In this document: one piece after another, positions 8,377 to 24,172 of the stretch | How the letters are laid out: every line of letters starts with the position of its first letter | Numbering within the stretch: position 1 is the first letter of the stretch | NCBI GenBank assembly: GCA_036676395.1 | Contig: JAKFCY010000002.1 | Location: 192,001 to 256,000 of the forward strand | Source of the DNA: Bdellovibrio sp. | Lineage (GTDB): Bacteria > Bdellovibrionota > Bdellovibrionia > Bdellovibrionales > Bdellovibrionaceae | Reading direction: 5' to 3' | Length of the DNA: 64,000 nucleotides | The notes under the pieces: model-generated | The model's input: only the letters and a program-made list of their open reading frames with translations | Database searches by the model: none | Told to the model about the DNA's origin: nothing | Translations under genes and position numbers: made by a program

Positions 8377-9141
8377 TTAGTATTTACGAAGAAGAGCTTT
8401 AACTAAACCTTTGATATCAACTTGTTGTGGCGCATACCACATTGAAGTTAAACGAGGGTTAGCTGGGCGTAATTCAATCGCTTTAGTGCTTGTTGAAATC
8501 TCTGGATTCTTTTTCATGTAAAAGCGCTTAACAGTAGCGCCTTCTTCGATGCCTGCAACAACAAGATCGCCATCTTTGGCATTCTTTTGTGAAAGCACGA
8601 CAAGAAAGTCTCCATCAAAGATACCTTCATCGATCATTGAATCACCTTCAACTTTTAAAGCGAAGTAATCACCAGGTGATTTCATAAAATTCACCGGCAC
8701 ATCGATGAATTCACCTTCGTGAATACGTTCGATCGGTGAGCCGGCAGCTACGCGGCCTAAGAAAGGGATAGGAAGAACCTTCGAATCTTGTCCGTGGAGA
8801 CTTTGGGAAGACTGACCAGCGAAGGAGCTCTTCGAAGGTTCTTTCACTAAATTAAGATTAGGCTGACCCAAACGACTTGCTAAATCTTTTTGAAAGTCTT
8901 CAGCAGAGTGCAAGATTTGGATCGCGCGTTTTTGATTCTGAGGAATTAGCAAATATCCTTTTGTGCTCAGCTGCTTTAAATAATTTTGAACTGAGTTAAA
9001 AGATGCAAAGCCAAAGTGATCACAGATCTCTTGATAAGACGGTGATACGCCTTTAGAGATCAGTTCCTGCTCAATAAATTGCAGGACTGATTTCTCTTTG
9101 GCAGTTAACGGTGGGAGGGGCGAGTTTGCATGTTTCTTCAT
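8377..9141 (-). CDS. lexA: SOS repressor LexA
   Basis: wHTH 'PSYQEI..HFGFAS', cleavage site 'GRVAAG', 'GDSM', 'TVKR'. Confidence 0.95.
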   Translation of the reverse strand: MKKHANSPLPPLTAKEKSVLQFIEQELISKGVSPSYQEICDHFGFASFNSVQNYLKQLSTKGYLLIPQNQKRAIQILHSAEDFQKDLASRLGQPNLNLVKEPSKSSFAGQSSQSLHGQDSKVLPIPFLGRVAAGSPIERIHEGEFIDVPVNFMKSPGDYFALKVEGDSMIDEGIFDGDFLVVLSQKNAKDGDLVVAGIEEGATVKRFYMKKNPEISTSTKAIELRPANPRLTSMWYAPQQVDIKGLVKALLRKY

Positions 9142-9149
9142 ACACATAA

Positions 9150-12005: not shown

Positions 12006-12593
12006 ATGAAAAAAATATTTTTAGTTTTAGCGTCGTTAGGCTTTAGTTTACAAACTTTTGCAGACCCTTGTGGTGCGAAATCAATTAAAGTCGGCAGTGA
12101 TAAATTAGAGCTTATTAAAATCACGGATAAACCAGAAAAAACTATGCAAGGCCAACCAATTAAAGGCGCTGATGAAGTTTTAATTTCTGGAATTTATATG
12201 TTTGTTCGCAATGGCCAGACATGGAATATCTACCGCTGTGCCGATGATACTAACAGCCTAAATTTAAATAACTGCGTTGTTAAAAATGATTTCGAATTCG
12301 GAAATCTTGTTAAACGCTACGGATCTTCCGGAATTACAGTGCGAAAAACTGATTCAAATAGATTGCAAGTCAGATTGAATGTCGCTGGTAATGAAGAGTT
12401 AGATTATTACGATGTGCGCGCTACTGAAAAAGGTATGGAAGTTATTCAAAACCAGTACAAAGAAAATAAAGTGCAAAGACATTTAAGTCAGCACGAACAA
12501 GTTTCATTAGGTGTTTGTTCAAAAGCTGAATCATCGAACGCGCCGAATGGAAAGCCTGCAAAAAAATCTTCGCCAGTTGATGTTAATCGTTAA
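12006..12593 (+). CDS. Secreted hypothetical protein
   Basis: Signal peptide; four Cys; no recognised domain. Confidence 0.7.
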   Translation: MKKIFLVLASLGFSLQTFADPCGAKSIKVGSDKLELIKITDKPEKTMQGQPIKGADEVLISGIYMFVRNGQTWNIYRCADDTNSLNLNNCVVKNDFEFGNLVKRYGSSGITVRKTDSNRLQVRLNVAGNEELDYYDVRATEKGMEVIQNQYKENKVQRHLSQHEQVSLGVCSKAESSNAPNGKPAKKSSPVDVNR

Positions 12594-12606
12594 AATTTAG
12601 GTCTTT

Positions 12607-12940
12607 AAAATGCAAAAAGCGAAATGAGCTTACGCCATTTCGCTTTTACAAGATATTCAGGCTTCATTCCGAAGAAAGGAGCCGAATATCGGAACTTATA
12701 TATCCACGTATATAACTTTTCGGAATAATAAGCGAAAACTTAAGTATTACCTCTGGCTAGTTTTATGTCTTCTCGAAGTCATAAAGCGTATCTTAGACTT
12801 AATACGATAGAGTCAGTTTGTTAGAGGATTCTTTCTAGATCACCGTCTGCGTACATTGATCATCGGAAGAAGTTTCGGGTAAATTGGAAAAGTCACTGCG
12901 TGACTGCGCAGAGACCTAATTCGGAATGGCGTTAAGCTCA
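12607..12940 (+). other. Structured element 1: candidate type I toxin-antitoxin-like locus
   Basis: 5' hairpin 12615-12647; SD-sequestering stem 12652-12690; micro-ORF 12688-12810; 5'-3' pairing 12625-12642/12922-12940; same layout as 22557-22861. Confidence 0.6.
12688..12810 (+). CDS. 40-codon basic/hydrophobic micro-ORF with ATC at the start position (putative toxin, or inactivated copy)
   Basis: AAAGGAG 12675-12681, ATC 6 nt later; IGTYISTYITFRNNKRKLKYYLWLVLCLLEVIKRILDLIR*. Confidence 0.45.
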   Translation: MGTYISTYITFRNNKRKLKYYLWLVLCLLEVIKRILDLIR

Positions 12941-14767
12941 CTTACTTACTAAGTGAGCGAGCTCTTGTTTTTTAATCTCTAAATTTTCCATGTGATTCAT
13001 CAAAGCTTCTTCCATGTTTTCAGTCTCAGTGTTTAAAGCTGCGGCCTGTTTGGCTAATTCTTGCGCCTGTTGGCCTTGAGCGGTGATCAGAGTCGAAGTT
13101 AATTCAGTTTGTTTTTCAGCTTGGCGAAATAATAACTCTTCGGTTTTAAGAATTTTTCGCTCTAATTCTTTAATTTCAGAATTTAAACGTTTGGTTTCTT
13201 CTTTATAGTTAAACTTTTTCTCTGAAGATTCAGAGTTAGTCACAACTTTTTCCACCACGATTGGCGTATCAACGCGTTCGCTTAAGATGCCCTTTTCTAA
13301 ACTCCATAAGTATTCGTCATATGACCCTAAGTATTTTTCGATCGTGCCGTTTCTGACTTCGACAATTTGTGTAGTCACTTGTTTTAGAAAAGTACGATCA
13401 TGGCTGACTAAGATCACTGTGCCGTTAAACTCAGAAAGCGCTACAGCTAGGGCATTCACGGTATCAAAATCTAAGTGATTCGTTGGCTCATCCAGAAGTA
13501 AGAGTGGATTTTTTTGTAATAACACTTGGCCTAAGGCCACGCGTGTTTTTTCGCCGCCAGAAAGCACTTTGATTTTTTTATAAATGCTATCGCCAGAAAA
13601 CAACAAAGAGCCTGCCATATTTAAAATGTCTTGAGCCATATTGTCTTTATGAGCTTTTCGTTGAAGCGCGTCTAAGACGGTATCGTTATCTAATAAATCA
13701 TCGGCTAAGTGCTGGGCAAAATAAGAATGGCGCACTTGATGGCCCCATTTAAGTTCGCCTGTGATTAACGGAATTTTTTCAGCAATAGATTTTAATAACG
13801 TCGATTTACCGGCGCCGTTAAAACCAACAATACCAATTTTTTGACCGCGCTCGATCGTGACGTTCACATTTTTAAGAATAACTTTATCTGCACTATAACC
13901 AAGATTGGCATTTGTCAGAGATAAAATTTCTTTTCCGGTCGGTGTAGCTACGGGTAAGTTAATAATCGCCCGCGGCGGTAATTTCTTGATTTCGACTTGT
14001 TCTAAGCGATCTAAACTTTTCAAGCGACTTTGCGCTTGTTTGGCTTTGGTGGCTTTAGCTCTGAATTTATCGACGAAATCTTGAATGTGCTTACGTTTGT
14101 TTTCGATTTGCACAGCTTTGGCTTCTAATAAACGCTTTAATTCAGCCTTTTGTTCGAAGTAATCATCAATATGACCCGGAAATTTCACAATATCACCAGC
14201 TTCGACTTCTAAAGTGTATTCAGTCGTGCGACGTAAAAATTCGCGGTCATGCGAGATCAATAAAAACGCCTGTTTATGATTTTGCAAAAAGTTTTCTAAA
14301 GTTAGAATGCTTTCTAAATCTAAAAAGTTGGTCGGCTCATCCAAAAGCATGATGTCTGGCTCTAGCCCGATCAGGTAAAGAAGCTTCATGCGCATACGAT
14401 AGCCGCCTGAAAGCTGTGTCAATTTTCCGGCAAAGTGACTCTCTTGTAAGCCAAGCCCAAGGCCGATTTGCTTTAATTCCCAAATGGGCTTGATGCAATT
14501 GTCTTTAAGGTAGTCTTCAGAGTTCACATCGACTGTCCAATCGGACTCTTGCTCGAGGTAGCCGATGCGTAAACCATTAGCTTTTGTGACTTCGCCGTTA
14601 TCTAAATGCTCTATACCCACGATAATTTTGAATAGAGTGGATTTGCCAGCTCCATTGGGGCCGATCACGCCAACGTGTTCGCCTTGATTAATGGAAAAGC
14701 CGGCGTTATCAAAAAGGATTTTTGAGCCATATTGCTTAGATGCATTGTAGAGTTGAAGCAGATTCAT
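12938..14767 (-). CDS. ABC-F family ATPase
   Basis: Two ABC cassettes (GPNGAGKS/LSGG/LDEPTN), linker, C-terminal coiled coil, no TM segments. Confidence 0.92.
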   Translation of the reverse strand: MNLLQLYNASKQYGSKILFDNAGFSINQGEHVGVIGPNGAGKSTLFKIIVGIEHLDNGEVTKANGLRIGYLEQESDWTVDVNSEDYLKDNCIKPIWELKQIGLGLGLQESHFAGKLTQLSGGYRMRMKLLYLIGLEPDIMLLDEPTNFLDLESILTLENFLQNHKQAFLLISHDREFLRRTTEYTLEVEAGDIVKFPGHIDDYFEQKAELKRLLEAKAVQIENKRKHIQDFVDKFRAKATKAKQAQSRLKSLDRLEQVEIKKLPPRAIINLPVATPTGKEILSLTNANLGYSADKVILKNVNVTIERGQKIGIVGFNGAGKSTLLKSIAEKIPLITGELKWGHQVRHSYFAQHLADDLLDNDTVLDALQRKAHKDNMAQDILNMAGSLLFSGDSIYKKIKVLSGGEKTRVALGQVLLQKNPLLLLDEPTNHLDFDTVNALAVALSEFNGTVILVSHDRTFLKQVTTQIVEVRNGTIEKYLGSYDEYLWSLEKGILSERVDTPIVVEKVVTNSESSEKKFNYKEETKRLNSEIKELERKILKTEELLFRQAEKQTELTSTLITAQGQQAQELAKQAAALNTETENMEEALMNHMENLEIKKQELAHLVSK

Positions 14768-22549: not shown

Positions 22550-22556
22550 GGGCGCC

Positions 22557-22861
22557 AAAAATGCAAAAAGCTGCAGGTGGATAACCTAACAGCTTTTTAG
22601 TGATACCAGACTTCCGAACTTACGGAAGGAGGTCCGATATGCGTAAACCCAATTATTTACGTTATCGTCGCCTTTTAAATGTTTCTAAAGAGATTTTAAG
22701 AATAATTATGATGATTCTAGTGATTGTCATAACGATTAAAAGTATTTAGCAATCTAGATTCTGTACGTTAATTGCTAGATTTTGATTTGTGATCAAGACC
22801 AAGGTCGGACTTAAAATCCCGGGAATTTGGTGAACATGGAATCGTTGTTAGGTCTATCCAC
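22557..22861 (+). other. Structured element 2: candidate type I toxin-antitoxin-like locus
   Basis: 5' hairpin 22565-22598; GACTTCC 22609-22615 pairs with GGAGGTC 22628-22634; micro-ORF 22639-22749; 5'-3' pairing 22577-22593/22844-22861. Confidence 0.65.
22639..22749 (+). CDS. 36-aa basic/hydrophobic peptide (putative type I toxin)
   Basis: AAGGAGG 22626-22632, ATG 6 nt later; MRKPNYLRYRRLLNVSKEILRIIMMILVIVITIKSI*. Confidence 0.65.
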   Translation: MRKPNYLRYRRLLNVSKEILRIIMMILVIVITIKSI

Positions 22862-22873
22862 ACTCTTAAAAAT

Positions 22874-22904
22874 AAAAAACCCACATTTTTTAGATGTGGG
22901 TTTT
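22874..22904. terminator. Bidirectional intrinsic terminator downstream of icd
   Basis: AAAACCCACAT...ATGTGGGTTTT stem with A/T tracts on both sides. Confidence 0.8.
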
Positions 22905-22942
22905 GAAGTTGGAACGCTGCTCCCGAAAAAGGGACGGCCTAC

Positions 22943-24172
22943 CTATAGAGTCATAGCTTTTTTAAGATTAGAATCGATTTTATCTAAGAATGGCTCTGTG
23001 TTCATGTACTTATCAGTAGGAACTTTATCGCCGTAGATGCAAACCGCTAAATCTTTTGTCATGAAACCAGCTTCAACTGTTTCAACACATACTTTTTCTA
23101 AAGTTTGTGCGAATTTTGCTAAAGGTGGATTGTTATCAAGTTTAGCTCTGTGCTCAAGACCACGAGTCCAAGCAAAAATTGATGCGATTGGATTTGTAGA
23201 AGTTGGTTTGCCTTGTTGGTGCATACGGTAATGACGAGTCACTGTGCCGTGAGCGGCTTCTGATTCCATTGTTTTACCATCTGGAGTAATTAATACAGAA
23301 GTCATTAAACCTAGTGAACCAAAACCTTGTGCAACAGTATCAGATTGAACGTCGCCATCGTAGTTCTTACAAGCCCATACGAAGTTACCATTCCATTTAA
23401 GAGCTGAAGCAACCATATCATCGATTAAACGATGTTCATACGTGATACCAGCAGCATCAAATTGAGTTTTGAATTCAGTTTGGTAAATGTTTTCAAAGAT
23501 ATCTTTGAAACGACCATCGTATTTTTTAAGGATCGTGTTTTTTGTCGATAAGTATAAAGGCCATTTTTTAGTTAATGCTTGGTTAAAGCAAGAACGTGCA
23601 AAACCTGTGATTGACTCATCAGTGTTGTACATAGCCATTGCAATACCATCACCTTTGAAGTTGTAAACTTCGTGAGTAATTGTGTCGCCGCCACCTTCAG
23701 GCTGAAAAGTAATTGTTAATTTACCTTTACCTTTTGTTACGAAATCAGTTGCGCGGTATTGATCACCGAACGCATGACGACCGATACAAATTGGCGCTGT
23801 CCAGTTAGGAACTAAACGAGGCACATTAGCGCAAAGGATTGGTTCGCGAAACACTGTACCATCAAGGATGTTACGGATTGTTCCGTTAGGTGATTTCCAC
23901 ATTTGTTTTAATTTAAATTCAGTTACGCGTTGTTCATCAGGCGTGATTGTCGCGCACTTGATACCAACGTTGTACTTTTTGATCGCTTCAGCAGCGTCAA
24001 CAGTGACTTGATCGTTAGTTTGGTCACGGTATTCCATGCCTAAGTCATAATATTTAATGTCGATATCTAAGTAAGGTAGGATTAATTTATCTTTGATAAA
24101 TTTCCAGATGATTCTTGTCATTTCATCGCCATCTAGCTCAACCACTGGGTTAGCCACTTTGATCTTTTGCAT
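22943..24172 (-). CDS. icd: NADP-dependent isocitrate dehydrogenase
   Basis: '[12 protein letters not shown]', 'KCATITPDE', 'NYDGDVQSD', '[10 protein letters not shown]'. Confidence 0.97.

Follow-up and report, generated by a model that had tools for sequence, protein, structure and literature searches.

A multi-copy gene family of Bdellovibrionales with the architecture of type I toxin mRNAs, and a lineage of it that retains ATC at the start-codon position

Two structured elements lie in a 64,000-nucleotide (nt) stretch of the genome of a Bdellovibrio sp. (GenBank assembly GCA_036676395.1, contig JAKFCY010000002.1, positions 192,001 to 256,000 of the forward strand; this whole stretch is termed the window, and all coordinates are window positions). 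One, copy 1, is an element of ~340 nt at 12600-12975; the other, its paralogue copy 2, is at 22558. The question raised by copy 1 is whether an open reading frame (ORF) that has ATC where its paralogue has ATG is still a gene and, if it is, what kind of gene. The reading that we favour, and consider reasonably probable, is that copy 1 is a functional member of a family of hok/AapA-like type I toxin mRNAs that in this lineage is translated from AUC at low efficiency. A preliminary description of the window had proposed that the two copies share an RNA architecture and an opening sequence, and comparison bears out both points, i.e. they are members of one family with a common layout, and the same 14-mer (AAAATGCAAAAAGC) occurs exactly at 12607 and 22558 (allowing up to two mismatches gives 6 matches versus 4.15 expected, not above chance). 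Both RNAs also have predicted folds that are more stable than those of dinucleotide-shuffled controls; the minimum free energy (MFE) of the copy 1 RNA (369 nt) is -112.8 kcal/mol, compared with -83.7 +/- 5.4 kcal/mol for 100 shuffles (z -5.4, with none as good), and for copy 2 the z value is -7.5.

The ATC at 12688-12690 is not an assembly slip, since contigs from other sequencing runs and four other species agree on it. The contigs of two other runs match 12500-13050 with 0 and 1 difference, the latter at 12947 (these two runs may derive from the source sample or from one nearby; the runs termed X6 and X9 were not used for 12688-12690). Orthologues with ATC at the same place are present in five species representatives (the source genome, G000, together with G018, G183, G016 and G168), with 75-96% identity to copy 1 over 12648-12945. 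In all five the ATC lies 6 nt after GGAG and opens a frame of exactly 40 codons that has no indel; in copy 1 this frame, which had been noted before, is open over 12688-12807 and ends with TAG at 12808-12810. The 3' untranslated region (UTR) that follows (12811-12921 in copy 1) contains hairpins and is of variable length, the distance from the stop codon to the 3' arm of the long-distance pairing described below being 108-116 nt, with ORF length fixed.

The pattern of substitution within the frame is of the coding type. The variable sites in codons 11-40 are distributed 5/1/16 over codon positions 1/2/3, and the ratio of nonsynonymous to synonymous change (pN/pS) is 0.13-0.39 in nine orthologue pairs, the near-identical G000/G018 pair giving 0.84 on only 6 differences. 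In codons 2-10 change tracks the stem of a hairpin, HP4, for which TTATATA, TTACATA and TTACAC stems occur, each with matching partners. Intact ATC copies are found in at least three genomic contexts, i.e. between a lipoprotein-like and an ABC-F gene in G000 and G018, beside icd in G183, and elsewhere in G016 and G168. Because the frame, the third-position pattern and the pairing of the 5' and 3' regions have been kept through divergence and relocation, the ORF appears to be translated rather than dead, with AUC most likely acting as its start.

The preliminary description had offered two readings of the ATC, as a non-AUG start that has been detuned or as the mark of a detoxified copy. The former is favoured by the retention of ATC and of an indel-free ORF in 5/5 orthologues, and by the third-position substitutions. 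A decayed copy 1, in which loss of the ATG silenced the ORF while the RNA remains as a remnant or an antisense decoy, would fit the observation that its lineage is the only one without ATG among the ~65 members parsed from Bdellovibrionales genomes and metagenomes, every member outside it using ATG. Decay does occur in the family, e.g. L030, L031, L050 and L138 have truncated or extended ORFs, G053 has an internal deletion, and G168 carries a split remnant. The decayed members have, however, lost the long-distance pairing, whereas copy 1 retains it at -40.7 kcal/mol, better than all 37 non-cognate combinations. Nor is decay easily reconciled with five species keeping ATC and 40 codons, with low pN/pS in the divergent pairs, with a 3' UTR that takes indels when the ORF does not, or with intact copies in several contexts, and we regard it as improbable.

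A translated frame might nevertheless be entered from elsewhere, either from a different near-cognate codon or, by coupling or frameshifting, from an ATG that lies upstream, at 12624. All five orthologues have this ATG, and in G016 it is in frame with the ORF; its frame varies, however, being out of frame in four orthologues and stopped after 16 codons in G168, and other in-frame near-cognate codons are not shared by the orthologues. Neither the ORF of G000 nor the 20 codons that stay open upstream of it contain an in-frame ATG, GTG or TTG; an in-frame ATG in G016 and an in-frame TTG in G183 are not common to the orthologues, such that no canonical in-frame start is shared. The ATC alone combines conservation with a position 6 nt after GGAG, which agrees with the spacing of ~5 nt between Shine-Dalgarno (SD) sequence and ATG in the family. 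Initiation elsewhere is thus a distinctly improbable explanation. In copy 1 itself the upstream ATG opens a 34-codon ORF (12624-12728), which, in a different frame, runs through the leader and codons 1-13 of the ATC frame; this ORF is not conserved among the five orthologues.

Initiation at AUC by the favoured reading would be consistent with reporter work in E. coli, in which initiation from AUC reached 1-2% of that from AUG, with Met as the first residue of the product (10.1101/063800). According to the same source, no E. coli genes other than infC and pcnB, both with AUU, have a confirmed non-canonical start, and non-canonical starts are described in PMC8167048 as an acknowledged way of lowering the translation of some type I toxins. 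As to the origin of the ATC, the subgroup of L032 and L196 reads GGAG-TCCGAATGAA-CCGAATATCGG, and a 10-nt deletion between repeated CCGAAT could have produced the ATC form. The stronger proposal, that an AUG was replaced by an AUC which is kept under purifying selection in at least five species, and which thus represents a natural, evolutionarily stable bacterial AUC start, is put forward tentatively, as something short of probable.

The family to which both copies belong is a multi-copy Bdellovibrionales gene family that has not previously been described. Of the five copies in the source genome, four start with ATG; the window accounts for two of the five and contig C3 for another two, the last being elsewhere on contig C2. 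From relatives and named genome records, 41 non-redundant members were parsed (37 with ATG and 4 with ATC, the fifth ATC orthologue having been added later, beyond this set), to which can be added 7 members from other genera of the same bacterial family and 17 of 35 metagenome loci, the latter all with ATG. Named carriers include Pseudobdellovibrio, 'Bdellovibrio sp.' and Pseudobdellovibrionaceae records, among them Pseudobdellovibrio sp. HCB154 and strain qaytius. The distribution is patchy, e.g. four complete genomes of the sister genus g18 comprise one with an intact copy, one with an internally deleted copy and two without a copy. A motif census, which gives upper bounds only (a reversed-pattern control also matches often at one mismatch, and membership was verified only for fetched loci), counts 256/384 genomes in the order, 144/181 in the family and 42/51 in the genus.

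Database searches place the family outside the described ones. There is no Rfam match at gathering score in the window, and five loci searched at E values up to 10 gave only sub-threshold, terminator-like matches; five peptides searched against Pfam and NCBIfam at E values up to 10 gave chance-level matches only, and PADLOC gave nothing usable on the family peptides. A profile of 38 peptides found only 43 relatives among 5.8 billion protein clusters, all of them unnamed or 'hypothetical'. The main text of the T1TAdb paper (PMC8594479) describes 24 families and does not mention Bdellovibrio, and a literature search combining 'type I toxin-antitoxin' with 'Bdellovibrio' returned no paper with either term in its title or abstract.

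Subfamilies alternate at one landing site, next to the isocitrate dehydrogenase gene (icd), where G000 has the ATG-type copy 2 (22558-22905) and G183 an ATC-type element (L189). At the lipoprotein/ABC-F site of G168 (L112/L113, the same as L193, orthologous to 12594-12940) there is the split remnant referred to above, in which two occurrences of the 5' block are separated by 2.4 kb, the intervening DNA being unrelated, and the first piece stops shortly after ATCGGA. Paired copies also occur, two in tandem 328 nt apart in G011 (L021) and two divergent ones ~1 kb apart in G105 (L177).

Anatomy is conserved across members that differ in sequence. With family positions counted from the first A of AAATGC (12608 in copy 1), the shared order is 5' block, palindromic hairpin HP1, a local anti-SD hairpin with a strong SD, start codon, HP4, TCG(G/A), the rest of the ORF (36-47 codons in total length across the family) and 3' UTR, which in its distal part is complementary to the 5' UTR of the same member. 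The 5' block opens with GG at positions -8/-7, the second G being present in 40/40 members and the first in 35/40, and continues as AAATGCAAAAAGC; the GG positions were not used in member selection, while the TGC of the block is invariant but was part of the search motif. The start codon is at positions 76-80 in 40/41 members, the exception having an insertion in HP1, and lies within or beside a small CCG/CGG stem. The TCG(G/A) is kept at the nucleotide level and encodes arginine R12, the sole invariant residue of the peptide. The support for these structures comes from custom scripts, as distinct from R-scape-type statistics or a covariance model.

Translation from such an RNA would be expected to be strongly masked. 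The local anti-SD hairpin is present in most members, the region from 30 nt before to 48 nt after the start has a mean z of -2.5 (z < -2 in 22/35 members), and in the thermodynamic model, applied to 35 members, the mean unpaired probability of the SD is 0.23 in the full-length RNA and 0.22 without the 3' arm. In copy 1 the SD, AAAGGAG at 12675-12681, is read from the sequence and conserved in the family alignment, with a mean unpaired probability of ~0.2; an anti-SD/anti-start arm, GATATTC.GGCTTC (12652-12665), pairs with 12678-12690 in the MFE fold, so that the stem described earlier as burying both SD and start is indeed present. As to the related proposal that the C of ATC extends this inhibitory stem, the C is paired in both alternative local folds of G000; the stems of the orthologues have internal mismatches. 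The sequence CTTTTCGGAAT (12716-12726), which contains the invariant arginine codon, is an alternative partner of 12666-12678, and the competing helix does form in a local fold; alternative folds thus exist as had been suggested, and their action as a switch is putative. Between the two lies HP4 (12696-12715, within codons 3-10, TTATATAT/GTATATAA), for which 30 distinct stem sequences occur at this position among 35 members.

As a separate observation on the ORF, 24/35 members keep CTA GTT TT (CTAGTTTT, or a variant differing at one base) for the Leu-Val codons that lie ~66-78 nt after the start codon (12757-12764 in copy 1), despite available synonyms; MFE folds usually pair this stretch with AAAAG/AAAAC or CTGG slightly further into the ORF.

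There is also a long-distance pairing between the two ends of the RNA. In copy 1, as the preliminary description had it, the 3' end pairs with the 5' region; 12622-12642 pairs with 12922-12943 through two 11-nt arms, each 91% complementary. The 5' arm proper (12625-12642) is made up of the loop and 3' arm of HP1, and the 3' arm (12922-12940), identified from the MFE fold and complementarity, finishes at the stop codon of the convergently oriented ABC-F gene. Across the family, the duplex of cognate 5' and 3' UTRs has a mean energy of -38.5 kcal/mol, versus -24.4 kcal/mol for 1588 dissimilar non-cognate pairs, and the cognate pair is better than every non-cognate one in 28/41 members. Pairing clearly fails in six members; the ORF is truncated, extended or altered in four of them and intact in one, and in the remaining one an insertion in HP1 puts the fixed coordinates out of register. 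The core helix of the clamp begins at positions 17-19 (12625-12627) in 20/35 members. The duplexes contain 166 G.U pairs versus 7 single A.C mismatches; neutral decay of a DNA inverted repeat should give approximately equal numbers of each, the pairing therefore acts, and has been selected, in the plus-strand RNA, with the two arms of the clamp co-evolving.

These results bear on the view that the element is a non-coding repeat of the REP (repetitive extragenic palindromic) or MITE (miniature inverted-repeat transposable element) kind with an incidental ORF. Such a view would account for multiple copies, intergenic sites and a long imperfect inverted repeat. It does not account for the coding signature, for a peptide alignment conserved across 38 members, or for the asymmetry between G.U and A.C, which reflects selection at the RNA level. 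Complementarity, moreover, stops at the flanks, where cognate and non-cognate combinations are equivalent (-9.3 versus -9.5 kcal/mol, 29 members), and a non-coding repeat is accordingly a very remote prospect. An apparent extension of the copy 1 inverted repeat into its flanks was rejected as chance, extension not being cognate-specific across the same 29 members.

HP1 differs from the clamp in the strand on which it is favoured. Its presence in copy 1 (12615-12647) had been noted before and is confirmed by 12/12 complementarity of its arms (12615-12626/12636-12647). HP1 is more stable on the minus strand in 25/35 members and on the plus strand in 1/35; its plus-strand form has 13 A.C/C.A mismatches, which are G.U on the minus strand, versus 4 G.U pairs, the mismatches occurring in at least seven different HP1 sequence variants. 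A terminator scan lists HP1 on the minus strand, as 13 pairs followed by TGCATTTTAA, the minus-strand T-run being at 12607-12614. Because of the strand bias, the T-run and the scan listing, HP1 together with the T-run (12607-12647) is a candidate intrinsic terminator, at which a minus-strand transcript antisense to the 5' UTR, SD and start may end.

The promoter of the mRNA would have to be compact and to lie inside the conserved block, given that upstream genes are close, i.e. in 15/39 members a co-oriented ORF has its stop codon 9-30 nt before the element, and in roughly a dozen there is a long open frame on the opposite strand upstream, which is likely a divergent gene. Scans for sigma-70 promoters found none conserved on either strand. 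In the 5' block (12600-12613; GG 12600-12601, TGC 12611-12613 in copy 1) the second G and the G of GC are 11 nt apart, which is also the distance in the TGGCAC-N5-TTGCT sites of the same genome, a spacing like that of the -24/-12 elements of sigma-54 promoters, and the genome has rpoN and ~12 genes for sigma-54 activators. Family members match ~6-10 of the 12 positions of what we take to be the sigma-54 consensus. A sigma-54-type promoter in the GG...TGC block has about even chances of being correct. With the GC of the -12 element at 12612-12613, it would predict a transcription start near 12625, where the core helix of the copy 1 clamp begins, and in 20/35 members the core helix sets in at the predicted +1; such a start would exclude the 5' arm of HP1 from the mRNA, in agreement with the lack of plus-strand selection on that arm.

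The encoded peptide is basic, with a net charge of +5 to +7 across the family, and has a polar N-terminal part, a basic middle and an amphipathic C-terminal stretch of 20 residues, with Glu, Lys/Arg and Asp residues spaced i, i+3, i+4, i+7; for the ORF peptide the hydrophobic moment is 1.6 and the net charge +6. AlphaFold2, run on the peptide of an ATG paralogue (contig C3) with an alignment of 38 family rows including the copy 1 peptide, predicts a single helix over residues 3-39 with a mean predicted local distance difference test (pLDDT) value of 81.9, rising to ~90 in the C-terminal half. The size of the ORF and the single amphipathic helix agree with the small (<60 residues) hydrophobic or amphipathic peptides of type I systems, and the peptide is most likely membrane-active.

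Alternatively, the tightly structured mRNAs of the family may specify a small membrane or regulatory protein that is harmless, without forming a toxin-antitoxin pair or having a dedicated antisense antitoxin. The lack of homology to toxin families, the failure to find an antisense promoter and the local nature of SD masking, which is independent of the 3' arm, all fit this proposal. By contrast, several features are typical of type I toxin loci and would be out of the ordinary for small housekeeping proteins, namely a multi-copy, patchy distribution with frequent decay, the replacement of one subfamily by another at the same site, the extreme masking of translation, a hairpin that resembles a terminator and is favoured on the minus strand, and the near-cognate start. 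A harmless product thus seems unlikely, though it deserves consideration.

The resemblance to characterized type I systems is one of architecture. As in hok/Sok, of plasmid R1 and its chromosomal homologues (on which see also PMC8167048 and PMC8594479), there is a toxin-size ORF in a highly structured mRNA of ~300-400 nt, with the SD masked and the 5' end clamped to the 3' end, as in fold-back inhibition; there is a candidate cis-antisense RNA opposite the 5' leader, and the loci are multi-copy and often decayed. Unlike hok/Sok, the family has no Hok/Gef homology in Pfam, no match to Sok or another RNA in Rfam, and no conserved overlapping leader ORF like mok among the five orthologues; removal of the 3' arm does not open the SD in silico, and the family promoter looks sigma-54-like.

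The AapA1/IsoA1 system of Helicobacter pylori, as described in PMC8594479, similarly has a 5'-3' long-distance interaction, successive local hairpins around SD and start with possible metastable structures, and an antisense RNA (a candidate here) that overlaps both the 5' UTR and the beginning of the ORF. In AapA1, however, the 3' end carries the anti-SD sequence according to PMC8167048, whereas the present family has a local, upstream anti-SD; family libraries indicate no relationship between the peptides, and the clade, Bdellovibrionales, is different. With TisB/IstR-1 and DinQ/AgrB of Enterobacteria the likeness is in the peptide, a short amphipathic, charged helix instead of a plain transmembrane segment, but the family peptides have no match to TisB_toxin (PF13939) in Pfam, and the antitoxins of those systems are, according to PMC8594479, divergently encoded upstream and non-overlapping. 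The E. coli genes infC and pcnB, with AUU, share with the ATC lineage what would be a near-cognate AUH start kept by selection for low or fidelity-sensitive translation; here, by contrast, the codon is AUC, and the gene is a small toxin-like one in a single lineage of an otherwise AUG family. Since homology tests fail, no mok-like ORF is present and the anti-SD is local, the family, as judged from its sequences, does not belong to the hok/Sok or AapA/IsoA families, nor to TisB/IstR, although it would work like the first two.

How the parts might act together can be outlined for the favoured reading. An mRNA of ~320 nt would probably start near 12625 from a compact sigma-54-type promoter, the full-length form being made with SD and start codon in local helices. 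Its 5' UTR would be clamped by the 3' UTR, which should block ribosomes and antisense RNA alike, protect both ends, and keep the RNA inert and stable, until some event, e.g. processing, unfolding or a stress signal, frees a translatable form. A cis-antisense RNA ending at the minus-strand HP1 terminator, the likely antitoxin, would compete for the freed form. In the ATC lineage the near-cognate AUC start would act as an extra brake, output being lowered to the percent range.

Several considerations weigh against this outline. The ends and expression of the mRNA, its dependence on sigma-54, the antisense RNA and the toxicity are predictions, and it is from selection acting on the frame that we deduce initiation at AUC; the members compared are related, such that counts across them are not independent. 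Partition-function folds count against a simple switch of the AapA1 type, the SD being ~80% paired either way. Since it stays paired after removal of the 3' arm, activation by 3' trimming, as in hok and AapA, is not supported in silico, and by the same result the 5'-3' pairing does not, in silico, itself control access to the SD. The match to sigma-54 promoters is partial, the family reading (T/A)GGY...AATGCA compared with TGGCAC-N5-TTGCT at the genome's clear sites, and in copy 1 no more than about half of the positions agree with the consensus; nor did a scan of 12450-13100 find a promoter of the sigma-70 type. An antisense promoter has not been pinned down, as the minus-strand -10-like hexamers, which cluster 60-90 nt into the ORF, sit in Ile and Leu codons of an AT-rich frame and may be compositional. 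The peptide, finally, matches no toxin family in Pfam, NCBIfam or PADLOC, and its look-alikes by language model in a protein atlas include a TisB cluster (0.82) and a DinQ-like cluster (0.80), both weak and below the 0.9 level.

If the rest of the model holds, the output of the toxin would be gated by a sigma-54 promoter overlapped by its own antisense terminator, by the 5'-3' clamp and by the fidelity of initiation, with the peptide of the ATC lineage being made only when start-codon proofreading (IF3-type discrimination against AUC) is relaxed. The selected AUC start, the compact sigma-54-like promoter overlapped by an antisense terminator, and the very long co-evolving clamp would be unusual variants within a known kind. 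The family adds an unannotated group of loci with type I toxin architecture to the predatory Bdellovibrio-like bacteria, and its ~65 members, with differing sequences but the same helices, constitute a compact natural data set for RNA design rules. The ATC lineage suggests, by comparison of species, that a near-cognate AUC can be kept as a start codon and need not reflect mistaken annotation or the death of the gene. Such ORFs escape gene callers, and the loci therefore stay invisible in annotation.

With respect to its surroundings, copy 1 occupies a 344-nt gap flanked by convergent genes, a lipoprotein-like ORF at 12006-12593 on the plus strand and the ABC-F ATPase gene at 12938-14767 on the minus strand. 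A plus-strand hairpin followed by a T-run at 12933-12975, seen in the sequence and the MFE fold and lying inside the last codons of the ABC-F gene, is a possible terminator of the mRNA, although the terminator scan does not list it. In runs X6 and X9 the contigs of relatives link 12785 to 12926 via 17 other letters, i.e. a form nearly without a 3' UTR between the end of the ORF and the 3' arm. The paralogous copy 2 (22550-22905, plus strand) has an ATG start at 22639 and a 36-codon ORF, which is followed by a bidirectional terminator at 22876-22904. Just 3' of that terminator is a GC-rich element of ~30 nt (GCTGCTCCCGAAAAAGGGACGGCCTACCTA, 22915-22945), which is REP-type-like and is found at more than 15 genomic sites with 88-100% identity. 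A minus-strand ORF of 256 residues at 8377-9147, ~3.4 kb upstream of copy 1, is one that we take to be LexA-like from its motifs (an N-terminal winged-helix-like part, an AAG site and GDSM); it may be relevant in that some type I toxins are SOS-controlled.

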